Assembly (NCBI GenBank): GCA_963719985.1
Contig: CAVRDU010000005.1
Coordinates: 578,817-642,816, forward strand
Origin: Candidatus Aminicenantes bacterium
Lineage (GTDB): Bacteria; Acidobacteriota; Aminicenantia; Aminicenantales; Saccharicenantaceae
Reading direction: 5' to 3'
DNA: 64,000 nt
Part shown: positions 8,423-63,220 of the stretch, piece after piece
Position numbering within the stretch: position 1 is the first letter of the stretch
How the letters are laid out: each line of letters opens with the position of its first letter
Position numbers and translations under genes: made by a program
The notes under the pieces: model-generated
Seen by the model: the letters and a program-made list of their open reading frames with translations, nothing else
Told to the model about the DNA's origin: nothing
The model's database searches: none

Positions 8423-9874
8423 TCAAGGCGATCCGGAGACGTTCGATTTGGCGTCTATTCCGTGCTTTTTCAATAGCTTGAATAGGCCCTGACGGGTCAG
8501 GCCGACCTCGGCCGCGGTCCGGGTCCGGTGGTAGCGGCAGCGGACCAGGGCCTCGCGGAGGAAACGCCTCTCGAAATCGGCCTTGGCCTCGGCGAAGCAG
8601 TGCGTCGTCCGCGAATAGGTCTCCCCGGCCGGGTTGATCTTGGGCGAAAGGTACTCCTCGAGAATGAGCGGCCCGCCGTCGGCCATGATCAGGCACCGCT
8701 GGACCTCGTTCTGGAGCTCCCGGACGTTGCCCGGCCAAGGGTAGCGGAGGAGCATCTCCAGCGCGACCGGCGAGACGAAGGGCCGCGGCCGGCCCATCGA
8801 CCGCGAGTACTCGTCCAGAAAACGGTTGAGGAGAAGGAGCGCGTCGTCCGGGCGCTCGCGCAGGGGCGGCAGGTCGACGGCGATGATCTTGATCCGGTAG
8901 TAGAGGTCCTGGCGGAAGCGCCCCCGCTCGACCTCGTGGTCGAGGTCCTTGTTCGTGGCGCTGACGAAGCGGGTGTCGACGGGCCGGGGCCGCGTCTCCC
9001 CGATCCGGCGGACCCGCTTCTCCTCGAGGACGCGGAGGAGCTTGGACTGGAGGGCGAGCGGCAGGTCGCCGATCTCGTCGAGGAAGAACGTCCCGCCCGA
9101 GGCCTCCTCGACGAGCCCGGACTTGTCCCGGACCGCGCCGGTGAACGCCCCCCGGGCGTGGCCGAAGAGCTCGCTCTCGAGGAGGGTCTCGGGGATGGCG
9201 GCGCAGTTGACGGCGACGAACGGCCCCGTCCGCCGCCGGCCCGTGTCGTGGAGGATGCGGGCGGCCAGCTCCTTGCCCGTGCCGCTCTCCCCGGAGATGA
9301 AGACCGGGGCGTCCGTGTCGCGGACCCTTTCGAGCATGGTCCGGACGCGGCGGACCGAGGGGGCCTCGCCCATGAACGCGCAGTCCGGGGCGACGGCGGA
9401 CGGCGGCGCGGGCGGCAGGGAGGCCGCCTCCCCGGAAGCCCTGGCGCCGTTCCGGCGGAGAAGGAAGAGGAGCGGGGCCAGCGTCAGGGTCAGGAACTCG
9501 AGATCGCCCCTGTCGAACGGCCGTCCTCCGCCGTCGCGGGCCAGATAGACGAGCCCGGCCGGACGCCCCCGCATCGTCCAGGGGTAGGAGAGTACGCGCC
9601 GGGGGTGCCCGTTCGCGCCGAGCTCGAGGTCGGCGAAGAGCGGCTCCCTGTCGAGGTCCGCCACGAGGACGGGGCGGCCGATCTCGAGGGCGCGCCCCGC
9701 GATCGCCTCGTCGACGCCGTCCGAGGCCCCGGCCGCCCCCCGGGCGTTCCCGATGCCCCTCGAGGCCTCGAAGGCCCGGTCGCCCTTGCCGTCGAGCACC
9801 CGGAACAGGGCCCGGTCCGAGGCCATCTCGTCGAAGACGATCTCCGCGATCCGGGCCAGGAAGCGTTCCGTCAT
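8423..9874 (-). CDS. Sigma-54-dependent transcriptional activator (bEBP) with N-terminal GAF domain and C-terminal Fis-type HTH
   Basis: AAA+ sigma54-interaction domain (GESGTGKE, GAFTGA, RVLEEK..., PGNVRELQN) and C-terminal HTH. The track ORF 8423..11101 is over-extended; the start MTERFLARIAE is in frame at 9874. Confidence 0.85.
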   Translation of the reverse strand: MTERFLARIAEIVFDEMASDRALFRVLDGKGDRAFEASRGIGNARGAAGASDGVDEAIAGRALEIGRPVLVADLDREPLFADLELGANGHPRRVLSYPWTMRGRPAGLVYLARDGGGRPFDRGDLEFLTLTLAPLLFLLRRNGARASGEAASLPPAPPSAVAPDCAFMGEAPSVRRVRTMLERVRDTDAPVFISGESGTGKELAARILHDTGRRRTGPFVAVNCAAIPETLLESELFGHARGAFTGAVRDKSGLVEEASGGTFFLDEIGDLPLALQSKLLRVLEEKRVRRIGETRPRPVDTRFVSATNKDLDHEVERGRFRQDLYYRIKIIAVDLPPLRERPDDALLLLNRFLDEYSRSMGRPRPFVSPVALEMLLRYPWPGNVRELQNEVQRCLIMADGGPLILEEYLSPKINPAGETYSRTTHCFAEAKADFERRFLREALVRCRYHRTRTAAEVGLTRQGLFKLLKKHGIDAKSNVSGSP

Positions 9875-10021
9875 GGTCGTTGGCGGGCCGGGATCCCCGG
9901 CCTCATCATAACAACGCTCGGCCGGCTGCGGTTTTCTCATTCTTGCGGAGCCGGGCGTCGATACCCTAGAATAGGCCGACGGCCGGACAGTCCCGCCGTA
10001 CCACCCGTCGAGGAGGAGTCC

Positions 10022-12358
10022 ATGACCAAGATCGCCGCGGTTCTCGGCATCCTCTGCCTGTTCGGCAGCGCGTTCGCTTCCCAGCAGAAGCCCTCGGTCG
10101 CCGAGGCCTTGAAGAAGACGCGGGTCCTGGCCGTCCCCGGGAATGGGCGGCCGGTCGACAGGACCGTGGCCGAGGAGCTCCGCCGCGAGCTGGCCCCGCA
10201 GGCCCAGGTGCGGAGCGCCGGGCCGGACGAGGCGGCCGGGCCGGGCGTCGTCCGCATCGCCGTCGCCGACGAGAATCTCGCCGCCGGGCCTTCCCCCGAG
10301 GCGCGGCGCCGTGCGACCGGGAAAGATTGGATGTTCTTCAGGCTCGCCCCGGACGGCTCGGGCGAGCTCGTGACCTCCGCTCCCCACCTCCTCTACGCCC
10401 TGTATCGCCTGGTCAAGGACGACTGGGCCGGGCTCGACGCCGCCGGCTTCGAGAAAGGCAACGTCGTCTCGCCCGCGTTCTCCCGCCTCGAGGGCGGCGA
10501 CAACTACCTGGCCAATCCGAAGCGGGTGGCGGCGGGCTACGACGCCGAAACCTCGGTCCGCGAGCTGGCCCGGCTCGGCTTCAGCCACGTGCCCGTGAAC
10601 GCCCTGGCCAAGGACATGCCGGCCGAGCAAGGGCCGCCCGGGGAGATCTACTACCGCTTCTATTACTTCAGCCCCGACCTCGACCAGTTCGTCGAGACGC
10701 CGCTCAACGCCGGGGCCTACTCGCCCGAGTACCTCGAGGCCAATCTCACCCTGCTCAAGGAGAACGCCCGCCTGGCCGTGAAATACGGCCTGACGCCCGG
10801 GCTCAACATCAGCTCGCCGCGCTCGGTCCCCGACGCCGTCCTCGAGAAATACCCCTACCTCCGCGGCGCCCGGGTCGACCATCCCTTCAGGAGCTACCGC
10901 CCCCGCTTCACCCTGACCCTGTCGCACCCGGCCGTCCGCTGGCATTACGCCGAGCTCATGCGCCGGCTCATGCGCGAGGTCCCCGAGCTCGGCTACATCT
11001 ACCTCTGGACGAACGACAGCGGCTCGGGCTTCGAATATACGGCCAGCCTCTACGCCGGGCGCAACGGCGGCGCCTACCTCGTCCGCGAGTGGAAGTCGCA
11101 CGAGGCCGTCGCCAAGGCCGCGGCCGAGAACGTCCTGCGCTATTTCCGGACGCTGCGCGACGCGGCGGCCGAGACCCGGCCCGATTTCCGGCTCCTGTTC
11201 AACCTCTTCTCCTTCGCCAACGAAGAGGCGTTCATCCTCGACGGCCTATCCGAGGGCCTCGACCTCTGGGTCGCGCCGAAGGAGCTCGACGACTCGCCCC
11301 GCGGCCGCCGGCTCAAGTCCCTGCCGGGGAAAGGGAGCGAGATCTTCACGACGACACGGCTGCAGAACAACTATCTCCTGGGCATCCCCTCGCCGTGGCT
11401 CGCCGCCGAGGAGGTCCGCGCCCTCCGCGCGGCCGGCTTCGACAAGGCCCAGGTCACGGTCGACCCGCAGCCGCTCGCGCCTTACGACGTCAACCGCGAA
11501 GTGCTGAGGGCGCTCAACTTCGATCCCGACGCCAACGTCGATTCCGTCGTGATGGCCGCGGCCGCGCGCTTCGCCGGCAAGCGCGGCGCCCCGGCCCTCG
11601 TCCGGGCCTGGCGGCTCGCCGACGCGGCCGTGCGCGGCTTCCCCTCGATCATGCTCTACGGCGACAACAACTGGGGTTTCCCCTGGTACCGGCTCCTCGT
11701 CAGGCCCTTCGCCCCCGACATCGAGAAGATCCCCGAGCCGGAGCGGGCCTATTACGAGAAGTATATGACCGTGACCTTCAACAACCCCAACCTCGTCGAC
11801 CTCGGCGTGGACATCCTCTGGACGCTCATGAACACGGAACAGGCGGACGCGGCCGTGGCCCAGGCCGACGGCAAGACCTGGGCGCCGCTCGACCAAGCCA
11901 TCGCGGCCCTCGGCGAGGCCGTCGGGGAGACGGACGGCGCTCTCCAGGCCGTCTTCACGGACCAGCTCGACAGGCTCCGGGCCTTGCGCTGCTACTTCCG
12001 GACGCTCCGCAACACGGCCGCCTGGGTGGCCGGCGTCCACGGTTATATCGAGGCCAAGGACTCGGCCGAGAAAGCGAGGCGACGGGAGGCGGTGCGGGCC
12101 ATGGTCGACGACGAGATCCGGAACGCCCGGGACCTGGCCGCGCTCTTCGAGTCGTCGAAGACCCGGTTCATGCCCGTCGATCCGACCGGCGAGACCTTCA
12201 ACATGTACGGCGCGAACCTCCCCGAGCTCATCGGGAAGAAGGTCGCCCTCATGGAAAAGCACCGCGACGACGAGCCGCGGATCGACCCCGATTTCATGTG
12301 GAGGATGCCCCCGGACGCGGGCCTCGACCCCGCGGTGTATCTTAAATACCGGAAGTAG
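10022..12358 (+). CDS. Hypothetical secreted protein (~779 aa), possible glycoside-hydrolase-like fold
   Basis: Strong [12 protein letters not shown] then ATG, followed by a signal peptide MTKIAAVLGILCLFGSAFA. Upstream track ORF sequence is antisense to the regulator gene. No family recognised by eye. Confidence 0.5.
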   Translation: MTKIAAVLGILCLFGSAFASQQKPSVAEALKKTRVLAVPGNGRPVDRTVAEELRRELAPQAQVRSAGPDEAAGPGVVRIAVADENLAAGPSPEARRRATGKDWMFFRLAPDGSGELVTSAPHLLYALYRLVKDDWAGLDAAGFEKGNVVSPAFSRLEGGDNYLANPKRVAAGYDAETSVRELARLGFSHVPVNALAKDMPAEQGPPGEIYYRFYYFSPDLDQFVETPLNAGAYSPEYLEANLTLLKENARLAVKYGLTPGLNISSPRSVPDAVLEKYPYLRGARVDHPFRSYRPRFTLTLSHPAVRWHYAELMRRLMREVPELGYIYLWTNDSGSGFEYTASLYAGRNGGAYLVREWKSHEAVAKAAAENVLRYFRTLRDAAAETRPDFRLLFNLFSFANEEAFILDGLSEGLDLWVAPKELDDSPRGRRLKSLPGKGSEIFTTTRLQNNYLLGIPSPWLAAEEVRALRAAGFDKAQVTVDPQPLAPYDVNREVLRALNFDPDANVDSVVMAAAARFAGKRGAPALVRAWRLADAAVRGFPSIMLYGDNNWGFPWYRLLVRPFAPDIEKIPEPERAYYEKYMTVTFNNPNLVDLGVDILWTLMNTEQADAAVAQADGKTWAPLDQAIAALGEAVGETDGALQAVFTDQLDRLRALRCYFRTLRNTAAWVAGVHGYIEAKDSAEKARRREAVRAMVDDEIRNARDLAALFESSKTRFMPVDPTGETFNMYGANLPELIGKKVALMEKHRDDEPRIDPDFMWRMPPDAGLDPAVYLKYRK

Positions 12359-52825: not shown

Positions 52826-54691
52826 CTACGAGACGATGATGATGGCCTCGCCGGCGACCGCGTCGAACTTGCAAACCTCGTAGCAGGAGCGGCACTTGAT
52901 GCACTTGCTCTGGTCGAGGTTGTGCGGCTGCGAGCGGGGGCCGGAGATGGCCTTGGTCGGGCAGACCTTGACGCACATCTGACAGCCCGTGCAGCGGTCG
53001 GGGATGATCCGGAAGGTGACCAGCTCGCGGCAGACGGTGGCCGGACACCTCTTGTCGACGACGTGGGCGATGAACTCCGACCGGAAATACCGGAGCGCCG
53101 TCAGCACCGGGATGGGGGCGGTCTGGCCAAGCCCGCAGAGCGAGCTCGCCCGGACGATCTCGCCGAGCCGCTCCAGCTTGTCCAGGTCCGCTTCCGTCCC
53201 CCCGCCCGTGGCGATCTTGTCGAGCAGGCCCACCATGTGGCGCGTGCCGACGCGGCAGGCCACGCACTTGCCGCACGATTCGCCCTGGACGAAGGACAGG
53301 AAGGTCCGGGCGGCGTCCACCATGCAGGTCTCCTCGTCCATGACCATGATGCCGCTCGAACCCATGATGCCCCCCGCTTCCGTGAGCGAGTCGAAGTCTA
53401 GCGGGGTCTCGATCTTTCCTCCCGGCAGGAACCCTCCCGACGGACCACCGATCTGGACGGCCTTGAGGCCCTTCTTGTCGGGGATGCCGCCGCCGATCTC
53501 GTAGATCAGCTTGGAGAGGGGGGTCCCCATGGGGACCTCGGCGACGCCGGAGTTGGAGACCTTGCCGGTGAGCGAGACGACCACGGTCCCCGGGCTTTTC
53601 TCCGTGCCGACGGAGGCGAACCAGGCCCCTCCCCGCGAGACGATCGGCGGGACAGAGGCCAGGGTCTTGATGTTGTCGACGACCGTCGGCTTCCCCCAGA
53701 GGCCGCTCGTCGCGGGAAAGGGCGGCCTGCTTCGGGGCATGCTCCGCGCGCCTTCGAGGGAGCTCAGGAGGGCCGTTTCCTCTCCGGACACGAACGTCCC
53801 CCCGCCCTGGAAGATCTCGACATCGAAGGCGAAACCCGTGCCCATGACCCGGGCCCCGAGATAGCCCTTCCCGTAGGCCTGATCGAGGGCCGCCTGGGCG
53901 CGCCGTGGCGGCCAGGGAGTACTCCGCGCGGCAATAGATGAAGCCCCGTTGGACGCGCCGACCGCGTAGCCGAGAAGGGCCAGCCCCTCGATGACCGAGT
54001 GCGGGTCCGCCTCGAGCAGGCTCCGGTCCATGAACGCGCCCGGCGAGCTCTCGTTGGCATTGCAGATGACGTATTTCTCGTCGCCGGGCTGACGGCGGCA
54101 GAGGTCCCACTTGACCCAGGTCGGGAACCCCGCCCCGCCGCGGCCACGCAGGCCCGCGCGCTTGACTTCGTCGACGACCCGCTCCGGCGTCATGGACGTC
54201 ACGGCCTTCTTCAGGCCGCCATACCCTCCCCGCTCCTCGGCGTCCTCGATCCGCTCGGGATTGACGAAGCCGCAGTTGCGCAGGATCAGCCGATACTGGT
54301 TCTTGTAAAAAACGATATCCTCGTAGCGGGGCACGGCCTCCTTGGTCACCGGGTGGCGGTAGAACAGGCGCTTGACCGGCTCCCCGCCGGGCCGGAGGGA
54401 CGCGGCGATGTCTTCCGCGTCGCCGGGCTTCACCTGGCAGTAGAAGATCCCCTCCGGCTCGACGACCACGATCGGCCCCTTCTGGCAGAAGCCGTGGCAG
54501 CCCGTGAAGCCGACCTTCACCCTGTCTGCGAGGTTCAGCCGGCCCACGGCGGCCTCGAGGCCGGCGCGGATCTCGGCCGACTTAGAGGAGGCGCAAGCCG
54601 TGCTTTCGCAGACAAGGATCCTCGTCGTCGCGGCGGCCGCCTTCGGCCGCGCCGCGGACTGCCCGGAGGCCTTCGGTCGACGGGCGCTCAT
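52826..54691 (-). CDS. NuoF-like NADH-binding flavoprotein subunit (HndC/HydB type: N-terminal 2Fe-2S thioredoxin-like domain, FMN/NADH domain, C-terminal 2x[4Fe-4S])
   Basis: Motifs GRGGAGFPT, GEETALLSSLEG, ESCGKC plus a C-terminal CxxCxxCxxxCP ferredoxin pair. The start MSARRPK overlaps the nuoE-like stop. A compensating frameshift pair lies near 53890 to 53920 (GFIYCRAEYSLAA in an alternate frame). Confidence 0.8.
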   Translation of the reverse strand: MSARRPKASGQSAARPKAAAATTRILVCESTACASSKSAEIRAGLEAAVGRLNLADRVKVGFTGCHGFCQKGPIVVVEPEGIFYCQVKPGDAEDIAASLRPGGEPVKRLFYRHPVTKEAVPRYEDIVFYKNQYRLILRNCGFVNPERIEDAEERGGYGGLKKAVTSMTPERVVDEVKRAGLRGRGGAGFPTWVKWDLCRRQPGDEKYVICNANESSPGAFMDRSLLEADPHSVIEGLALLGYAVGASNGASSIAARSTPWPPRRAQAALDQAYGKGYLGARVMGTGFAFDVEIFQGGGTFVSGEETALLSSLEGARSMPRSRPPFPATSGLWGKPTVVDNIKTLASVPPIVSRGGAWFASVGTEKSPGTVVVSLTGKVSNSGVAEVPMGTPLSKLIYEIGGGIPDKKGLKAVQIGGPSGGFLPGGKIETPLDFDSLTEAGGIMGSSGIMVMDEETCMVDAARTFLSFVQGESCGKCVACRVGTRHMVGLLDKIATGGGTEADLDKLERLGEIVRASSLCGLGQTAPIPVLTALRYFRSEFIAHVVDKRCPATVCRELVTFRIIPDRCTGCQMCVKVCPTKAISGPRSQPHNLDQSKCIKCRSCYEVCKFDAVAGEAIIIVS

Positions 54692-55158
54692 GAGGGCTTC
54701 TCCGGGGTGTCGAGGGATTCGACGAGCCGCATGAAGGTGACCCTGTTCATCCTCCCATGGACCTCGTTGTCGACGACGACGACGGGGGCGTTGGCGCAAC
54801 AGCCCAGGCATCCGACGGCTTCGAGACTGAGCTCGCGGTCCGGAGTCGTCTGGCCGTGGACGAGGTTCCTCTCGATCTTCATGGCTTCCATGAAGTTCGG
54901 CGCTCCGCCGACGTGGCAGGCGTTGCCCAGGCAGACCTGGATGTGGTGCCGCCCGGGCGGCGCGAAGCGGAACTGGGGGTAGAACGAGGCCACTCCGTAT
55001 ATCTCGTTCTCGGAGACGCGGAGCTCGCGGGAGATGCGCCGGACGGTCTCCCGCGAGAGATATCCTTCGGTCTCCTGGGTCCTTTTCAACAGGGGGAGGA
55101 GGCTTTTCCGCCGCTCCCGGGACCTCTGTCGAACGGTCTCGGGCAAGCTCACCGCCAT
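54688..55158 (-). CDS. NuoE-like [2Fe-2S] subunit (HndA/HydC type)
   Basis: 156 aa. The four-Cys thioredoxin-like motif spans CLGNACHVGG … CLGCCANAP. Confidence 0.85.
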   Translation of the reverse strand: MAVSLPETVRQRSRERRKSLLPLLKRTQETEGYLSRETVRRISRELRVSENEIYGVASFYPQFRFAPPGRHHIQVCLGNACHVGGAPNFMEAMKIERNLVHGQTTPDRELSLEAVGCLGCCANAPVVVVDNEVHGRMNRVTFMRLVESLDTPEKPS

Positions 55159-55182
55159 GTCGTCTCCTCTCAGGGGCCGGCC

Positions 55183-56502
55183 TCAGCGCGCGCGCCGATC
55201 GTGCTCCGGCCTCCTTCTGATATAGATGTCCCTCAGGGCGTCGATCCGGTCCTTGGAGAGGAACACGCACTCCCCGATCTGGTCCCGGCCGGCGGCGGCG
55301 TCCTCCGCGTGGCTCTTGCAGGTCGGGGCCCCGCACAGGCCGCAGTTCAGGAGCGGCAGGGCCCTCAGGAGCTCGGCCGCCCGCTTCTTCCGCTCGACCC
55401 GCTCCCGCAAGCCGACGCCCTTGCCCTCGGTGTTCCTGGGCCGGAGCGGGGCCCGCAGCGCGAACTCCTCCTGCGCGAACCGCCGGTCGACCTCGCTCAG
55501 GAACGCGGGCCTGGGCTCCGACCGGGCGGCGACCAGGCGGAGGTACTTGCTGCGGGCCACATAGATGTTCTCCACGGTCAGGTTGCCGCCGATGCAGGCG
55601 CCCTGACAGGCATGGCACTCCAGGAACTCGACGTTCCGGATCTTGCCCTTCTCGACGTCGTTGAGGACCTTGATGATGTCCGAGAGGCCCTGGAGCGGCA
55701 GGTAGTGCTCGCGCGACAGGCTGGGGAACTCACCCTCGGGCGAGCCGGAGAAATACCACCCGGCCGTCCCGCCCTCGGGCCTCGCGCCGTCGGCGTTCGG
55801 CGGGCCCTTGCGCATGATGGCCAGCAGATCGTTGTAGATCTGCGAGATGCCGACGGCGCCGTCGAGGTGGCTGCCCGCGCCCTCCGCGGGGTGGAGGATG
55901 GAGATCGTCTTGGCCTGGCAGGGCGCGATGTAGATGGCCGCGACCTCCTCCGGCTCGACGCCGACCGCCCGGGAATAGTGGCGCTTGAGCTCCCGGCCGG
56001 CGACCTCCCGGGGGGCCTCGATCCGGATGAGCTGGTCGACCATCGTGGGGTAGACGACCTGCACCAGGCGGACGACGACGGGACAGGAGTTGGAGATCAA
56101 GGGGAAGGGCCCGGACCACTTCTGCACGTAGTCGCGGATGGCCCGGTCGATCAGCTCGATGTCGACGGCGTATTCCCAGACCGCGTCGAAGCCGAGCGCC
56201 AGGAGGGCCTGGCCGACCTGGGCGGGGGTGTCCTTCAGGCCGAACTGGGTGAAGAGGGCGGGCGAGGCCACCGCCACCTTGAACTTGAAGCGGTCGAGCT
56301 CGTCGAAGGTGATGGTCGTCGCCGCGATGGCCCCCGGGGCGCACACGCCGAGGCAGGAGCCGCAGTCGATGCAGAGCTCCGGTATGACCGTCGCCCGGCC
56401 CTTCTTGACCCGGACGGCGTGCGTCGGGCAGGCCCGCATGCAGGCCATGCACCCGGTGCACTTCTCCGGGACGATCCGGAAGCCGTGCGTCAGCTCAGTC
56501 AT
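55183..56502 (-). CDS. [FeFe]-hydrogenase-like protein with degenerate H-cluster motifs (HydS-type putative sensory hydrogenase, no PAS domain)
   Basis: N-terminal 2x[4Fe-4S] domain. Motif L1 reads SNSCP instead of TSCCP; L2 reads APCQAK; L3 reads ECHACQGACIGG. A C-terminal extra 4-Cys motif (NCGLCGAPTC…GEC) is present. Confidence 0.7.
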   Translation of the reverse strand: MTELTHGFRIVPEKCTGCMACMRACPTHAVRVKKGRATVIPELCIDCGSCLGVCAPGAIAATTITFDELDRFKFKVAVASPALFTQFGLKDTPAQVGQALLALGFDAVWEYAVDIELIDRAIRDYVQKWSGPFPLISNSCPVVVRLVQVVYPTMVDQLIRIEAPREVAGRELKRHYSRAVGVEPEEVAAIYIAPCQAKTISILHPAEGAGSHLDGAVGISQIYNDLLAIMRKGPPNADGARPEGGTAGWYFSGSPEGEFPSLSREHYLPLQGLSDIIKVLNDVEKGKIRNVEFLECHACQGACIGGNLTVENIYVARSKYLRLVAARSEPRPAFLSEVDRRFAQEEFALRAPLRPRNTEGKGVGLRERVERKKRAAELLRALPLLNCGLCGAPTCKSHAEDAAAGRDQIGECVFLSKDRIDALRDIYIRRRPEHDRRAR

Positions 56503-56932
56503 GGGCGTCCAGCCTGATCTTGGCGAAGACCGCGGTCCCCTTCCCGACCTCGGTCTCGACCCTGAGGTCGTCGGAGTTCTTCCGCATGTTCGGCAGGCCC
56601 ATGCCGAAGCCGAAGCCGAGCTCGCGCATCTCGTCCGAGGCCGTCGAGTAGCCCTCCTGGAACGCGAGCTCGAGGTCCGGGATCCCCGGCCCCTCGTCCC
56701 GGACCTCCAGGTTGACCTCGTCCTCCGACAGGATGAAGGTCAGCGTCCCCTGCCGGGCGTACATGACCACGTTCATCTCGGCCTCGAAGGCGACGACCAC
56801 GATCCGTCTCAGCGAGGACGCCTCGATGCCGAGGTCCCGGAGAGTCGTCTTGATCTCCCCCGAGACCTCGCCGGCGGTGTCGAAGTTCCCGCCCTGGATC
56901 GCGTAGCTCTCCCGCATCAGCTCGGCCGCCAT
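56495..56932 (-). CDS. Histidine-kinase-like ATPase (anti-sigma regulatory factor / serine kinase fold)
   Basis: The start MAAELMRE is in frame inside the over-extended track ORF. GHKL-like motifs (NVVMYARQG, RDEGPGIPD, GFGFGMGLP). Confidence 0.7.
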   Translation of the reverse strand: MAAELMRESYAIQGGNFDTAGEVSGEIKTTLRDLGIEASSLRRIVVVAFEAEMNVVMYARQGTLTFILSEDEVNLEVRDEGPGIPDLELAFQEGYSTASDEMRELGFGFGMGLPNMRKNSDDLRVETEVGKGTAVFAKIRLDAHD

Positions 56933-57276
56933 CAGGACACGCCCTTCAATCCCTTGTTGTAGAGGACCGCGCAGATGTCGAACATGACCATGCGGGTCGC
57001 CAGGACGGGGATCCCCTTCTTCTTGGCGAACTCGACGACCCGAGCGTCGGGGCGCTTGCCGCGGCAGAAGACGATCGCGCTGACGCCGGCGATGTCGGCC
57101 GTCCGGACGGCCTGGATGTTCGTCAGGCCGGTGATCATCAGCTCCCGGGACCTGGCGAAGGCCAGGATCTCGCTCATGCCGTCGGAGGCCACGACGAACT
57201 GGACGTCCAAGCCGAGGTCGTCGCCCTCCGTGAGGACCTCGCACTGAAGGATGTCCCGGATCTCGTCCAGCGTCAT
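56932..57276 (-). CDS. DRTGG domain protein
   Basis: 114 aa (MTLDEIRDILQCEVLTEGDDL…MITGLTNIQAVRTA…). Start and stop are overlapped by the neighbouring genes. Confidence 0.7.
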   Translation of the reverse strand: MTLDEIRDILQCEVLTEGDDLGLDVQFVVASDGMSEILAFARSRELMITGLTNIQAVRTADIAGVSAIVFCRGKRPDARVVEFAKKKGIPVLATRMVMFDICAVLYNKGLKGVS

Positions 57277-57277
57277 G

Positions 57278-58703
57278 TCATTCCTGGCCCGTCAGATACT
57301 TGTGGATGGAGGCGGCGGCGATCCGGCCGTCCCCCATCGCGCTGATGACGGTGGCCGCCCCTCGGACGACGTCCCCGCCGGCCCAGACCCGGGCCCTGGA
57401 CGTCAGGGCGGTCGGCGGGATCGGTCGCGAGCCCGCCCTTCTTGCTGAGCTCCAGCCCCTGCGTCGTCATCGGGATGAGGGGATTGGGGCTGTTGCCGAT
57501 GGCGATGACCACGGCGTCGGCGGGCATGAGGAACTTCGAGCCCTTGACGGGGACCGGCCGGCGGCGGCCCGAGTCGTCCGGCTCGCCGAGCTCCATCTCG
57601 CAGGCACTCCATCTCCTTGAGCCAGCCGTGCTCGTCGCCGATGAGCCGGACGGGCAGCGTGAGGAGGTCGAAGATGACCCCCTCCTCCTCGGCGTTCTCG
57701 ACCTCCTCGAGGCGGGCGGGCAGCTCCGTCCGGCCGCGGCGGTAGACGAGGTGGACCTCGTCGGCGCCGAGGCGCAGGGCCGTGCGGGCGGAGTCCATGG
57801 CCACGTTGCCGCCGCCGACGACGGCCACGCGGGCGGGCTGCTTGACCGGCGTGTCGTACTCGGGGAACCGGTAGCCCTTCATCAGGTTGCACCCGGGTGA
57901 GGTACTCGTTGGCCGAGTAGACGCCGTTGAGGTTCTCGCCCGGGATCTCCATGAACCAGGGCAGCCCGGCGCCCGCGCCGACGAAGACGGCGTCGAACTC
58001 CTCGAGGAGCTCGTCGACCGTCCGGGTCTTGCCGACGATGTAAGTCCATCTCGATCCTGACCCCCAGCGCTCTGCACGTAGTCCACCTCGCGGCTGACGA
58101 TGCTCTTGGGCAGCCGGAACTCGGGGATGCCGTAGATCAGGACGCCCCCCGCACTCGTGCAGGGCCTCGAAGATCGTCACGTCGTGGCCGAGGATGAGCG
58201 AGGTCGTTGGCCACGGTGACGCCGGCCGGCCCCGCGCCGACGATGGCCACCTTCTTGCCCGTCTTCGGGGCCAGCTTCGGGATCTCGATCTTGCCCCGTT
58301 CGGCCTCCCAGTCGGCCAGGAAGCGCTCCAGCCGGCCGATGGCGACGGGCTCGCCCTTCTTGCCCAGGACGCACATCTTCTCGCACTGCTCCTCCTGGGG
58401 GCAGACGCGGCCGCAGATCGCCGGCAGGGCGTTGGTCTCCTTGATCTTCCGGATCCCCGGCGGCGAAGTCGCCCTCGACGATGCACTGGATGAAGCCGGG
58501 GATGTCGATGCCGACGGGACAGCCCTTGTTGCACAGCGCGGCTTCTTGCAGTCCAGGCAGCGCGAGGCCTCCTCCCGCGCCGTCGCGACGGGATAGCCGA
58601 GGGCGACCTCGTCGAAGTTCTTGACCCGCTCGTAGGGGTCCTGCTTCGGCATGGGCCGCCGCAGGAGGTCCAGCTTCTTCTTGGTCGTCTGTTCGTCAGC
58701 CAC
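57278..58703 (-). CDS. GltD/SfrB/NfnB-like NAD(P)H-dependent FAD/FeS oxidoreductase (glutamate synthase small-subunit family), at least 4 frameshifts
   Basis: GTG start after GGAG (…TTKKKLDLLRRPMPKQDPYERVKNFDEVALGY). Fragments in three frames include CLDCKKPRC, EEQCEKMCVLGKKGEPVAIGRLERF, KKVAIVGAGPAG, RVAVVGGGNVAMDSAR and the C-terminal …AMGDGRIAAASIHKYLTGQE. Confidence 0.6.
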
Positions 58704-58740
58704 TTTTCGCTCCCTTCTCCCGCGAGGCGCGCGCCCCGGC

Positions 58741-59578
58741 TCAGAAGTGCGAGGCGCAGCTGCTCCGGCGCAGCGGATCGACCTCTTCGGGATTGTAGCT
58801 CTTGCGCCGGGCCAGGAACTCTCCCAGTCGATCTCGTGCCCGTCGAAGTCGGGCCCGTCGACGCAGGCGAACTTCATCTTCCCGCCGACGGACAGCCGGC
58901 AGACGCCGCACATCCCCGTCCCGTCGATCATGATCGGGTTCATGTTGACGATGGTCTTCCAGCCCAGCGGCCGGGTCAGCTCCGACGTCCGCATCATCAG
59001 GAACGTGCAGCCGTTGACGATGATCAGGTCGGGGGCGATCCCGGCCGCCGCCAGCATGTCCGGCATGTCGCCGATGTGCCCCTTCTGGCCCTTCGTCCCG
59101 TCCCGCGTGGCGACGAACAGCCCGTTCGGACGTCGCGGCCAGCTTGTCCTCCCAGTAGAGCAGAAAGGCTCCGCGGGCCTCGAGGAACGTATAGACCGTG
59201 TTGCCGGCCTCCTTGAGGGCCCGGGCGACGGGGTAGATGCGAGCCGATGCCGTAGCACCCGCCGACGCACAGGACCGTCCCGAAGCTCTCGATCTCGGCG
59301 TGCTCTTGCCGAGCGGCCCGGCGTAGGTCGGAATGGTCTGGCCGGGCTTCAGGCGGGCCAGCTTGGCGGTCGAGGCGCCGACCTGCATGAAGATCGACGT
59401 CACCGTCCCGCTCTCCCTGTCCCAGTCCGCGACCGAGAGGGGGATCCGCTCGCCCTGGTCGTCGGGGCGGACGATGACGAACTGGCCCGGCTTGACGGAC
59501 CGGGCCACGGCCGGCGCCTCGAACGGTGAGCTCGTGGAGGTTCGGGACGATCATGCGCCGCTCGATCACCTCATACAT
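58741..59578 (-). CDS. NfnA/SudB/PyrK-like FAD-binding electron-transfer subunit with C-terminal [2Fe-2S], at least 3 frameshifts
   Basis: MYEVIERRMIVPNLHELTV start. Fragments include VKPGQFVIVRPDDQGERIPLSVAD, YPVARALKEAGNTVYTFLEARG, TGMCGVCRLSVGGKMKFACVDGPDFDGHEIDW. Confidence 0.55.
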
Positions 59579-59613: not shown

Positions 59614-62098
59614 TCAAGCTCCATGACGCGCCACCTTGACGCGGGCCGGGTTCTCCCCGAGGCGGACGAGCGGCCGCAGCCCGCTCCGGCCTTCGAGACC
59701 TCCCCAGACGACCGGCCGCGCGAGGTACACGACTCCCCGGGGGCACTCCTCGTCCGCCCTGACGGCGCCGACGCCGCCCGGCCGGCCGCCGTCGGGCGAC
59801 AGGGCCGCCAGGTCGCCGGCGCGGAGGCCCAGGGCTTCGAGGTCCTGGGGGTTCATCCTCAGTCCTTCTTCGAGGGCCAGCTCTTTGAGCCCCCCGACCT
59901 TGGACGAAAGGTCGACGCCCCGATGACGGTAGCCGGAGGGGGCCGCGACCAGCAGGAACTCCCCCTCACCGGCGGTCGCGGGCTCCGACCTCGATCCCGC
60001 GGCGGCGCCGTCCGCCGAAAGCCGGCGCGGCCTCCGGTTGATCCCGGCCGGGAATCCGGGGACCGACCGGCGGATGTCCTTGAAGACGTCCCGGGGCGAC
60101 TTGTAGTTCATCAGGTGACAACCCATGGCGTTGGCGAGGTCGGAGAAGATCCTCCAATCCGGCCGCATGAACCCGTTCTGGGGGCTCTCCGGCTGGTCCT
60201 CGATCCTGACGACCTCCTGGACGCGGCCCTCGAGATTGACGAGGGTCCCGCCGGCCTCCGCGAAGGACGCGGCCGGGAGGAAGACGTCGACCGGGAACGG
60301 CGGAAGGTAGGTGTCCTGGACGATCAGGAGATCGCAGTCGGGCCTTTCCGGGAACGGGACGTCCCCGACGAGATAGAGGACCTTGGGCCGCGGCGAGGCG
60401 GCGAGGAGGCCGTCGAGCCCGGCCGGGACCTTGTCCTGATAGAGCCCCAGCTCGAGGGCCCCGCGAGCGTTGGCCCCGAAATAGAGAGGGATGACATTCG
60501 TGTTCTTGCGCTTCGCGAGCGTCCTCAGGCCTTCGACGAGCGCGTCGGTCGCTCCGTAGTGGAACGCTTGGGGCCCGACGATGACGGCCAGGCGGTCGCT
60601 GGAAGCGAGGACCTTCGCGGCCCTGTCGAGGGAGGACGCGTCGACGCGGGCGTCCTTGGCCGCGGCCGCGAGAGAGGTCTTCCCGTCCTTCCCGGCCGAC
60701 GCCAGCGCTCTCAGGAGCGACCCCTCCCGGCCGGGAAGGGGGCGCAGCCAGTCGTCGGTGTAGCGGGCCAGGTTGCTGTCCCTGGGATCGATGGTGACCA
60801 GCCGCGCGCCGGCGTTGATGGCCTGCCTGACCTTCGTCCCGACCACGGAGAAGTCGAAGCGGCTGTCGAGCCCGACGGCCAGGATCGTGTCGGCCCGGAG
60901 GATGTCCTTGATGGAGACCGGCAGGGAGAACAGCCACGTCCAGAGGCCCGGGCCCCCGGGAAGCTCCAGCCGGGCCGTGGAGTCGACGTTCTCCGAGCCC
61001 AGGCAATCGCGGACGAACTTCCGGGCGGCGAACAGGCTCTCGTTGGTGAGGTCGGGCGAGACGAGCATGGTCATGCCGCCGGGACCGGCCGCTTGGAGCT
61101 CGCCGGCCACTTTGGTCAGGGCCTCCTCCCAGGCCACCTCCCGGAAGAACTCGCCTTTCTTGAGCATGGGCTTCCGCGCCCGGCTGAAATGGTGCGTCGT
61201 CTCGGGAAGGCCGAAGCGGCCCTTGACGCAGAGCTGCCCGTCGTTGACCTCCGGGTCCAGGTGGGCCTTGACCCGGGTCAGTCGGCCGTTCTTGTGGTGG
61301 ACCTCGATCTGGCAGCCGACGGCGCAGATCGGGCAGGTCGAGACGTGGACCCCGTCCGACTTCCCCTCCCACTTCGAGGCCTTGTCCGAGAGGGCGCCCG
61401 TCGGGCAGACGTCGACGCAGGCGCCGCAGAACTCGCAGCCCGCTTCGATGTGGCTCCGGCCGAAGGCCGGCCCGATCTTCGTCTTGGAGCCGCGCTGGGT
61501 GAAGGCCAGGACCGCGGTGCCGCGGACCTCCTGGCACATCCGGACGCACCGGCCGCAGAGGATGCAGATGTTGTAGTCCCGGTCGTAGAAGGGGTCGTCG
61601 TGCTCCGGCTCGAAGCCGTGATACAGGATGGGGTAGTCGAAGTCCGCCGAGGCCGACGCGGTCGATGACGTCCTGCAGCTCGCACTGGCCGTCGTTGGGG
61701 CAGAAGCGGCAGCCCGTCGTCACGCCCGTCTTCCGGATGGTCCCCTGGTAGGTTCGGCAGGCCTCGCTCTCGTCGCAGATGAGGCAGCTCGAGGGGTGCT
61801 CGCTCAAAATGAGCTTGAGCATCTCCTGGCGGAACGCCCTGAGCGCGTCCGTCTCCGTCCGGACCTTCATCCCCTCCTCGGCGGCCGTGGTGCAGGACAG
61901 GGGATAGCCGCGCAGCCCCTCGATCTCCACCATGCACAGCCGGCAGCCGCCGAACGGCGACAGGTCCTTGTGGGAGCACAGGGAGGGGATGGAGACGCCG
62001 TTGATCTCGGCCGCGCGGAGGACGGTCACGCCTTCGGGGAAGGGGACGGTCCGCCCGTCGATCTCCATGGTGAAAGTGCGAGGTTCGCGGAGAGCCAT
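59614..62098 (-). CDS. NuoG/SfrA-like subunit: N-terminal 2Fe-2S and 4Fe-4S domains plus molybdopterin-oxidoreductase (MopB) domain with Glu at the formate-dehydrogenase Cys/Sec position; one frameshift (~61655)
   Basis: MEIDGRTVPFPEGVTVLRAAEINGVSIPSLCSH… (2Fe-2S), CVRMCQEV…CEFCGACVDVCPTGAL, and the MopB Fe-S motif CPICAVGCQIEVHH…VNDGQLCVKGRFG. The aligned VDNCARxU/CH block reads VDSTARLELPGG. Confidence 0.7.
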
Positions 62099-62141: not shown

Positions 62142-62468
62142 CTATCGGACCCCGAGCTCGTAGAGGCTTTTGGCCAGCGTCCAGGTGTCCTTGTCGTACC
62201 CGAGAAGCCGGATCTTGGCCCGGTTGGCCAGGGCGACGACGTCTTCGGGAGGGACCTTGCCCCGGGCGTAGACGACGGCGGAGACATCGACCAGGTTGGC
62301 CGCGGCGATCAGGTTCTTGTGGGTCTGCAGGGTGACGAGGAGGTTCCCTTCCTTGATCCCGATGATGTCGCTGACCATGTCGGAGATGTAGACGCCCCGG
62401 ATCTCCTTGTCGCTCTGCTCGTTGAATGTCTTGAGGCCCAGCCGTTGGACGAGTTCGGAAGTGTTCAT
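62142..62468 (-). CDS. DRTGG domain protein (second copy)
   Basis: 108 aa (MNTSELVQRLGLKTF…LLVTLQTHKNLIAAANLVDVSAVVYARGK). Confidence 0.7.
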   Translation of the reverse strand: MNTSELVQRLGLKTFNEQSDKEIRGVYISDMVSDIIGIKEGNLLVTLQTHKNLIAAANLVDVSAVVYARGKVPPEDVVALANRAKIRLLGYDKDTWTLAKSLYELGVR

Positions 62469-62496: not shown

Positions 62497-63024
62497 TTAA
62501 TAGAGCTCCGTCAGGCCGACGTCCGCGAGGACGATGCCCTGGCACGAATCCACTGACCGCCGGAGCCGGCAGGGGACGACCTTGATCCGCCGCGGCTCCC
62601 GCGGCCCTCCCTGATAGTATTCGTTGAGGGCCCGGATGCCCGCCTCCGGGACGCATGTCTGGGACGCGTGCGAGGTGTCCGCGCACAGGGCGACATAGAC
62701 CCACGCCCTCTCCCCCTGTTCGAGCTCGGCGGCCTTGGAGACGCCGCACTCCGGGTCGCAGCGAACGCAGAGCATCAGGGCCATGAGCTCCTTCAGCGGC
62801 ACGACCTGGCCGCACGCGTCGCACCGGAGGTCGAACTTGGTGGCCTGGGCGCTGCCGAGGTAGTTCCAGAAATGGTCCCCCTCGTGGTAGGACTCGATGG
62901 GCGGGACAGGCTCTCCCGAGAAAAAGGAGATCCGGTTCAGGCAGTGATAGCACCCCTCGGTGACCAGGTATCCGTCGCGGATATCGGCCATCGCCCACTT
63001 ATGACGGCAGACGGACTCGTTCAT
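62497..63024 (-). CDS. Hypothetical Cys-rich (multiple CxxC) protein at head of redox operon
   Basis: 175 aa with motifs C6, CYHC, CDAC, CVRCDPEC, C…C. No family recognised. Confidence 0.45.
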   Translation of the reverse strand: MNESVCRHKWAMADIRDGYLVTEGCYHCLNRISFFSGEPVPPIESYHEGDHFWNYLGSAQATKFDLRCDACGQVVPLKELMALMLCVRCDPECGVSKAAELEQGERAWVYVALCADTSHASQTCVPEAGIRALNEYYQGGPREPRRIKVVPCRLRRSVDSCQGIVLADVGLTELY

Positions 63025-63220
63025 GGGGACCGCACCTCTCTAGGGAAATCCCGGGTCCGGAAGGCGGTCGAAGCGAGACCGGCCGCGACAGACCTGTCCA
63101 CCGCCTTCATTTTCCCCTGTCATACGTCATCAGACCTCGTTCTCGACTCGGCCTGGTCGTTACGTTTGGGCGCACTATACCATCGGGCCCGAATCCCTGT
63201 CAACGATTTTTGGCCGGCGG

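Follow-up and report, generated by a model that had tools for sequence, protein, structure and literature searches.

What does an [FeFe]-hydrogenase homologue do when it is encoded together with a GHKL-type ATPase, a DRTGG protein and a set of flavin- and iron-sulfur-dependent redox proteins? The question is raised by a 64,000-nucleotide stretch of DNA, called the window here, from a Candidatus Aminicenantes bacterium (GenBank assembly GCA_963719985.1, contig CAVRDU010000005.1, positions 578,817 to 642,816). The three genes at its center, the trio, read as follows in window positions:

56932-57276, minus strand: DRTGG protein 'b', 114 residues, first gene of the trio (Pfam DRTGG, E 1.5e-9)
56495-56932, minus strand: GHKL-type ATPase of the SpoIIAB/RsbW/RsbT kind, 145 residues, second gene of the trio (HATPase_c, HATPase_c_2)
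55183-56502, minus strand: HydS-like, M2e-type [FeFe]-hydrogenase homologue, 439 residues (Pfam, HMMER alignment, structural model)

We propose that the trio is a regulatory module that responds to H2 or to the redox state and serves a Bfu/Nfn-type NADH/ferredoxin/NADPH oxidoreductase without a hydrogenase subunit, and we give this reading a probability of about one half.

Arrangement of the trio genes

An earlier note on this DNA had described the three genes at these positions as translationally coupled, and both the genes and their coupling were found again. The stop codon of the DRTGG gene shares 1 nucleotide with the start of the GHKL gene (TGATG), and the stop codon of the GHKL gene lies 8 nucleotides inside the HydS-like gene, giving an 8-nucleotide stop/start overlap (ccATGACTGAg; ATGACTGA). 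The next gene, for a NuoE-like protein, starts only 24 nucleotides past the HydS-like stop. Third-position G+C followed a clean single frame across the DRTGG, GHKL, HydS-like and NuoE genes of this genome of 68% G+C. All three trio genes were under purifying selection when compared with a 95%-identical relative, with ratios of nonsynonymous to synonymous substitution rates (dN/dS) of 0.13-0.34, the value of 0.34 being that of the HydS-like gene.

Domains, H-cluster ligands and fold of the HydS-like protein

Pfam recognized an Fe_hyd_lg_C domain (E 8e-24), two Fer4 motifs at residues 9-60 and an FeS domain (PF04060) at residues 382-414. A HMMER alignment with the Desulfovibrio desulfuricans enzyme paired FTSCCP with ISNSCP, MPCxAK with APCQAK and EYMACPGGC with ECHACQGAC. 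Because these motifs align, the four cysteines that bind the H-cluster are kept: C140, C195, C299 and C303 correspond to C300, C355, C499 and C503 of CpI. The claim of the earlier note that these ligands are intact was thus borne out, with four of four present and invariant in 109 homologues. In total, 15 cysteines form invariant columns in these 109 diverse sequences, seven of them belonging to the N-terminal clusters, four to the H-cluster and four to the C-terminal cluster. The lysine of the second H-cluster motif (L2) and the glutamate pair proposed to relay protons are invariant in the 32 sequences of the subfamily.

The first H-cluster motif (L1) reads SNSCP, as had been stated before, and lacks the proton-relay cysteine, in whose position Ser139 is found. 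It had further been claimed that this is the change reported for HydS proteins. The loss of the cysteine agreed with this; the replacing residue did not, since in groups C and D the cysteine at CpI position 299 is mostly exchanged for alanine (PMC10407848) and here for serine. Position 299 was highly variable in the wider family (Ala, Ser, Phe, Thr, His, Leu and others) and Ser in almost all members of the subfamily of the window.

The four-cysteine motif announced for the C-terminus is C387-x2-C390-x4-C395-x16-C412 (Cx2Cx4Cx16C). The list of Pfam matches of the HydS-like protein contained no PAS domain, again in line with the earlier note. A PAS domain hidden by a frameshift was considered and ruled out by the 24-nucleotide gap to the NuoE gene, the unbroken third-position G+C frame and more than 100 homologues of the same length and architecture. 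In the first ferredoxin motif, most homologues carry Arg in place of the second Cys (CxGRMxCMRACP), and their first N-terminal cluster would therefore have three cysteine ligands; residue 18 of the window protein is Cys.

An AlphaFold2 model built on the 109-sequence alignment reached a predicted local distance difference test score (pLDDT) of 91.4 and a predicted template modelling score of 0.91; it replaced a first prediction from 32 close homologues with a pLDDT of 57. The top 50 Foldseek matches of the model in the PDB were all [FeFe] hydrogenases (E about 1e-17, template modelling score about 0.62). According to the model, the protein has a confident hydrogenase fold. Its NCBIfam scores were far under every curated hydrogenase cut-off (TIGR02512: 80 bits vs 406; NF040763: 69 vs 765). 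These scores and the L1 motif, SNSCP and not TSCCP, set the protein apart from the prototypical and bifurcating HydA enzymes of group A, and the missing C-terminal PAS domain sets it apart from group C (M2f).

Relation to TamHydS and group D

Group D (M2e) enzymes combine two N-terminal [4Fe-4S] clusters with a C-terminal Cx2Cx4Cx16C motif, lack Cys299 in their H-domain and have no PAS domain (PMC8163306), and all four features were found in the HydS-like protein. The sole characterized enzyme of this group is TamHydS from Thermoanaerobacter mathranii (PMC13104023). The earlier note had taken Thermotoga HydS as its frame of reference, for which group D and TamHydS have to be substituted. TmHydS of Thermotoga maritima, a group C (M2f) protein for which H2 sensing was proposed, does resemble the window protein in its two N-terminal [4Fe-4S] clusters, its H-domain without the proton-relay cysteine and its C-terminal four-cysteine cluster (PMC10055695), but differs from it by a C-terminal PAS domain.

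For the comparison, the TamHydS sequence was rebuilt from a machine-read coding sequence (PMC13104023, supplement), and 22 of 22 checked published residue numbers were reproduced. BLASTP aligned both proteins end to end over 419 residues with 34% identity (E 2e-83). They share their length class (435 vs 439 residues), the three-part architecture without PAS and the loss of the proton-relay cysteine. Residues S249, E252 and E289 of TamHydS correspond to S252, E258 and E295, C379 to C387, and the Glu-Asp pair beside the C-terminal cluster (E392/D393) to E400/D401 (PMC10407848; PMC13104023). The two proteins differ at position 299, where A137 of TamHydS is replaced by S139, at the Met353 position (Ser in TamHydS, A193 here), at the Met497 position (L291, here H297) and at D265, which is Q271 in the window protein. 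The proton path proposed for group D runs through E252, E289, S249 and D265 in TamHydS numbering (PMC10407848). Three of these four residues are therefore kept, and the fourth, Gln271, is variable in the subfamily.

A HMMER scan over 1.84 billion cluster representatives yielded 5452 relatives of the HydS-like protein, 262 of them at E <= 1e-30. The best matches outside its own subfamily were M2e-type proteins of 420-450 residues without PAS and with 30-44% identity. P0146, which represents the 50% cluster closest to TamHydS and is 54% identical to it, ranked 26th among the 5452 matches. One match, P0181, is a predicted protein of 4122 residues with 13 separate H-domain-like stretches. In a crude, midpoint-rooted neighbour-joining tree drawn without references from groups A, B and C, the subfamily formed a deep clade apart from the crown group of TamHydS. 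Judged by its sequence, the protein probably branches deeply among the M2e-type homologues, taken as group D in a broad sense.

Only Firmicutes, Bacteroidetes, Synergistetes and Coprothermobacter are represented among the 70 group D members listed in the literature. The subfamily of the window, matched by 323 species representatives, was found in metagenome-assembled genomes of Aminicenantes, Krumholzibacteriota, Planctomycetota, Acidobacteriota, Desulfobacterota, Actinomycetota, WOR-3 and Eisenbacteria. IMG annotates near-identical relatives of the HydS-like protein as 'RnfB'; for the GHKL ATPase it gives 'anti-sigma regulatory factor' or 'RsbT', and for the DRTGG proteins 'HPr serine kinase'. 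Surveys built on these names will overlook the genes as hydrogenase homologues.

The GHKL ATPase and the DRTGG proteins

The ATPase matched HATPase_c (E 1e-11) and HATPase_c_2, and among PDB structures SpoIIAB, the serine kinase that acts as anti-sigma F factor, is its closest homologue (E 7e-10). The N, G1 and G2 boxes for ATP binding (EAEMN, DEGPG, GFGFGMG) are conserved in 78 orthologues. Size, GHKL fold family and ATP-binding boxes thus liken it to the partner-switching serine kinases SpoIIAB, RsbW and RsbT. It differs from them in its score for the best NCBIfam match, spIIAB (TIGR01925, 48.5 bits, under the equivalog cut-off of 135), and in its partners: none of the ten genes of the operon codes for a STAS protein or a sigma factor, and DRTGG proteins hold the position of the partner. 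In DRTGG protein 'b', the SDxxSxI and ITG motifs are conserved in 77 orthologues. It is a paralogue of DRTGG protein 'a' from the head of the operon (27% identity, E 3e-10).

In concept, the pairing of a slow hydrogenase with a GHKL-type kinase that reports H2 is known from the regulatory [NiFe] hydrogenase HoxBC and its kinase HoxJ (PMC8163306). Metal site and protein families are unrelated there, however, and HoxJ has PAS and HisKA domains and a known response-regulator output.

The trio as a conserved unit

Related loci were seeded with the HydS or the NuoG-like gene, and the 122 with enough upstream sequence were counted. The order DRTGG, GHKL, HydS was present in 119 of them, spread over at least eight phyla, and the 8-nucleotide overlap of GHKL and HydS recurred in 95 of those 119. 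Natural fusions were seen among the ten longest related representatives: five are HydS proteins with a C-terminal DRTGG domain (P0141, P0143, P0201, P0204, P0250), one is a DRTGG-HydS fusion (P0131) and one joins HATPase_c to HydS (P0152). None of these ten proteins has a PAS domain.

The trio was also met in quite different surroundings. P0146, from a spore-former and the representative closest to TamHydS, lies in a CheW-DRTGG-GHKL-HydS arrangement. P0158 belongs to a bare three-gene unit, and P0125 to a trio with an extra DRTGG gene, a PHP protein and a second GHKL gene. Since distant members have the trio alone or beside CheW or PHP proteins and not beside a redox complex, it behaves as an autonomous unit. 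Gene order, overlap, fusions, varied surroundings and selection mark DRTGG, GHKL and HydS as one unit. As such, the trio of the earlier note is real and widely conserved.

Orphan HydS-like genes with 48% identity occur in metagenome-assembled genomes of actinomycetes (L073, L075, 9998-11290), with no GHKL or DRTGG gene near. The one in L073 has genes for an FG-GAP/TIG protein, an MFS transporter and, on the other strand, a triple-PAS HD-GYP protein as neighbors.

The redox genes of the operon

The trio is embedded in the following features, listed from the head of the operon:

63174-63203, minus strand: promoter-like site, TTGACA-18 nucleotides-TATAGT with TG extension (11 of 12 consensus matches; a sequence match only)
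62497-63024, minus strand: Cys-rich protein, 175 residues, at the operon head (no Pfam or NCBIfam family)
62142-62468, minus strand: DRTGG protein 'a', 108 residues (Pfam DRTGG, E 1.2e-5)
59614-62098, minus strand: NuoG-like/BfuA-like Fe-S conduit protein whose molybdopterin-type domain is inert (frameshifted once, at about 61646)
58741-59578, minus strand: NfnA-like gene (PyrK/SudB-like, flavin adenine dinucleotide (FAD)/[2Fe-2S]; three-frame reading, broken by small indels)
57278-58703, minus strand: NfnB-like gene (GltD/SudA-like, NADPH-binding, FAD/2x[4Fe-4S]; broken by small indels)
54688-55158, minus strand: NuoE/HydC/BfuC-like [2Fe-2S] thioredoxin-like protein, 156 residues (Pfam 2Fe-2S_thioredx, E 3e-42)
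52826-54691, minus strand: NuoF/HydB/BfuB-like flavoprotein, 621 residues (Pfam Complex1_51K, SLBB, NADH_4Fe-4S)

The order of the ten genes is Cys-rich, DRTGG-a, NuoG-like, NfnA-like, NfnB-like, DRTGG-b, GHKL, HydS-like, NuoE, NuoF. The second DRTGG gene and the Cys-rich gene had rightly been placed at the operon head before (62142-62468 and 62497-63024). Promoter-like sites of the sigma-70-type consensus numbered 2, against 0.8 expected in shuffled sequences, and a leader of about 150 nucleotides separates the listed site from the first gene. No RNA element was found between 50 and 64 kb.

The NuoF-like protein has two extra domains according to Pfam, an N-terminal 2Fe-2S_thioredx at residues 21-99 and two C-terminal Fer4 at 561-611. 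The BfuB subunits of bifurcating enzymes have an N-terminal [2Fe-2S] and two C-terminal [4Fe-4S] clusters (PMC9304861). With this BfuB domain set, a NuoE-like BfuC and a NuoG-like BfuA, the neighbors of the trio have the features of the Bfu family (PMC9304861), and electron bifurcation is predicted. The intact orthologue of the NuoG-like protein (827 residues, locus L002) contains Fer2_4, NADH-G_4Fe-4S_3, Fer4_Nqo3, Molybdop_Fe4S4 and Molybdopterin domains; the best PDB matches were FdsA and subunit A of NiFe-HydABCSL (7t2r, E 2e-58). Formate dehydrogenase activity was considered for this protein and rejected: the catalytic Cys/Sec and His of a Mo/W site are absent, and 'TCARVCHSPTG' of FdsA aligns to 'STVRM-ELPGG'. 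Intact orthologues of the NfnA-like and NfnB-like proteins (277 and 471 residues) exceed the curated cut-offs of NF004862 (331 bits, cut-off 220) and TIGR01316 (588 bits, cut-off 472), a point of resemblance to NfnAB (NfnSL).

The earlier note had seen the trio beside a bifurcating hydrogenase. This part did not hold: an L1 motif of the TSCCP type with an L2 motif after it, as in canonical HydA, was found in no open reading frame of the window or of 82 related loci, and the neighbors are the NuoE-, NuoF- and NuoG-like proteins and the NfnA/NfnB-like pair. TamHydS differs in this respect, its gene lying upstream of a HydABC hydrogenase.

Several known complexes resemble the operon in part. Bfu enzymes whose catalytic subunit is separate (Acetomicrobium mobile NiFe-HydABCSL; Clostridium autoethanogenum Fdh/Hyt) share the NuoE/NuoF-like core and a NuoG-like conduit protein that itself has no catalytic site (PMC9304861), to which the window adds the NfnAB-like pair and the HydS/GHKL/DRTGG module. 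Nfn-Bfu/Stn (NfnABC) likewise combines an NADPH-binding GltD-like module with NuoE/F-like subunits. There, however, BfuA carries the GltD-like domain as a fusion and NfnA is missing, whereas here NfnA and NfnB have a gene each, and both genes always come after the NuoG-like gene. Our literature search, which is no proof of absence, found no description of a complex with this composition, of a DRTGG partner, of the fusions or of the Bfu/Nfn context.

For the Cys-rich protein of the operon head, neither Pfam nor NCBIfam nor the PDB yielded an informative match, apart from a weak zinc-ribbon-like similarity of residues 64-93. About 12 of its cysteines are conserved in 52 orthologues, and its dN/dS was 0.17 against locus L082. 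Most related loci have the gene, always ahead of the first DRTGG gene; wherever the HydS trio is missing, so is this gene.

Elsewhere in the window, two very long open reading frames overlap on opposite strands (8423-11101, minus; 8528-12358, plus), both with high third-position G+C.

Comparison of the gene cluster between lineages

The ten genes fall into four blocks, namely Cys-rich with DRTGG-a, NuoE with NuoF, NuoG-like with NfnA and NfnB, and DRTGG-b with GHKL and HydS. These blocks are permuted between lineages yet kept together. Three metagenomic loci (L137, 7695-14789; L145, 3840-10431; L146, 52-5898) contain only NuoE-NuoF-NuoG-NfnA-NfnB between unrelated flanking genes, and lack the trio as well as the pair of Cys-rich and DRTGG-a genes. 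Since they carry the core only, the redox core can occur by itself, which makes the remaining five genes accessory. These 'naked' clusters hint at an independent Bfu/Nfn-type enzyme of five subunits.

Where NuoE and NuoF are placed after the first DRTGG gene (for example L007 vs L006), they are 45-55% identical to those of the window, compared with 65-85% for the other genes. The gap points to the recruitment of two different NuoEF lineages into the same cluster.

Small insertions and deletions in the redox genes

Reading frames were compared with locus L082, which has about 95% DNA identity; every gene is intact in this relative and in L081 and L002. The nfnA and nfnB genes contain 15 small indels (57413-59519), 14 of them insertions of 1-2 nucleotides and one a deletion. 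The NuoG-like gene has a 1-nucleotide insertion at 61646 relative to L002 and L082, and in NuoF a +2/+1 pair of insertions at 53950/53905 scrambles 14 conserved residues, the GFIYCRAEYSLAA motif. No indels were found in 54688-57276, which holds the genes for NuoE, HydS-like, GHKL and DRTGG-b, all with dN/dS <0.35. The indels lie off homopolymers, substitution levels equal those of the intact neighbors and third-position G+C is >0.9 in each shifted frame. Because they are non-homopolymer insertions at a normal substitution level and the relatives are intact, the indels look technical and are probably assembly or sequencing errors. If they were real, the presumed client of the trio would be inactive in this strain.

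Discussion

TamHydS is a competent and reversible but slow hydrogenase (PMC8163306) with low turnover and high affinity for H2, which triggers changes in its secondary structure (PMC8163306, PMC13104023) and reduces its N-terminal clusters (PMC13104023). Its interaction partners and signalling route were stated to be unknown, and finding them to be critical (PMC13104023); the GHKL gene next to it had already been noted (PMC8163306). For the window we propose a corresponding mechanism. A putative H-cluster whose proton path (Ser139, Glu258, Glu295) is slow would bind H2, the presumed signal, and reduce the N-terminal [4Fe-4S] clusters. The GHKL ATPase, bound to the HydS-like protein, would read the resulting redox or conformational change and act in an ATP-dependent manner on the DRTGG protein or proteins as its presumed target, probably as a Ser/Thr kinase or by partner switching. 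In this way the co-encoded redox complex would be adjusted to the H2 or redox level of the surroundings.

Several points weigh against such a regulatory module. What is known of the subfamily comes from sequence. The Met353 position, which is typically Ser or Thr in M2e proteins and Thr in most of the subfamily, is Ala both in the window protein (Ala193) and in its nearest relatives. A heuristic motif scan found no HydEFG maturases (HydF, radical-SAM) in the window or within 10 kb of any locus. In TamHydS, H2 did not reduce the C-terminal cluster, so that the route by which the signal leaves the protein is unclear (PMC13104023). The operon encodes no DNA-binding protein, sigma factor or STAS domain that would define an output step. 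Finally, within the subfamily, the near-constant placement of the HydS-like gene in a Bfu/Nfn operon and its co-translation would fit a structural subunit equally well.

This last point leads to the alternative that survives best, even if we consider it rather unlikely. The HydS-like protein would then activate H2 as the catalytic subunit of a split [FeFe] hydrogenase of the Bfu type with several subunits, and would dock on the NuoG-like BfuA in the way of the S and L subunits of NiFe-HydABCSL or of HytA in the Fdh/Hyt complex of C. autoethanogenum. H2 would be linked to NAD(H), ferredoxin and, via NfnAB, NADP(H), with GHKL and DRTGG as built-in regulators. The HydS-like protein is indeed the only candidate H-cluster protein of the cluster and occurs with Bfu/Nfn genes in nearly all loci of its subfamily, yet the trio of distant members stands alone, with no redox complex near. 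A separate H-cluster subunit that feeds BfuA has a precedent (PMC9304861), and the NuoG-like protein, with its full set of Fe-S domains and dead pterin-type domain, resembles the conduit subunit A of NiFe-HydABCSL. The Bfu/Nfn core, however, also occurs without the trio and, given its NADPH site, already has three substrates. Among the ten long representatives, fusions join HydS to GHKL and DRTGG domains and never to NuoG-, NuoE- or NuoF-like proteins. TamHydS itself is a reversible hydrogenase, although a slow one (PMC8163306), whereas the canonical proton pathway is missing from the HydS-like protein. In its broadest form, the idea would be that the 'sensory' M2e hydrogenases of this clade are not sensors but H2-activating subunits of an unrecognized split enzyme, gated by GHKL and DRTGG and with a wide distribution over Aminicenantes, Planctomycetota, Acidobacteriota and further uncultured anaerobes; this we hold to be a little more doubtful still.

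Less probable again is a HydS-like protein with Fe-S clusters only and no [2Fe] subcluster, serving GHKL and DRTGG as a redox sensor of the ferredoxin or NAD(P)H pool or as an electron-transfer protein. The result of the maturase scan would be in line with it, although HydEFG genes are commonly unlinked from hydA genes. The RnfB-like label in IMG and the NCBIfam scores far under the curated hydrogenase cut-offs point in the same direction. Against this stand the four H-cluster ligands, invariant in 109 divergent sequences, and the L2 lysine and glutamate pair, invariant in 32, a conservation that is therefore hard to explain without a [2Fe] site. A decaying operon, with nfnAB-like, NuoG-like and NuoF pseudogenes and a HydS trio in the course of being lost, would account for the 15 indels in nfnAB, the one in the NuoG-like gene and the scrambling pair in NuoF, but is very improbable in view of the neighbor-like substitution level and third-position G+C >0.9 of the broken stretch, the technical look of 14 of the 15 nfnAB indels (non-homopolymer insertions), the indel-free HydS, GHKL, DRTGG and NuoE genes with dN/dS <0.35 and the fully intact loci L081, L082 and L002.

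Conclusion

Gene order, the recurrent 8-nucleotide overlap and the fusions point to SpoIIAB/RsbT-like GHKL ATPases and DRTGG proteins as the signalling partners of group D, and to a module that may be attached to a redox complex other than a hydrogenase. M2e-type proteins are extended to at least eight phylum-level lineages beyond the published group D set. Since public pipelines label these proteins 'RnfB', H2 sensing and H2 metabolism are probably under-counted in metagenomic surveys. The partners of group D hydrogenases thereby become directly accessible to experiment.

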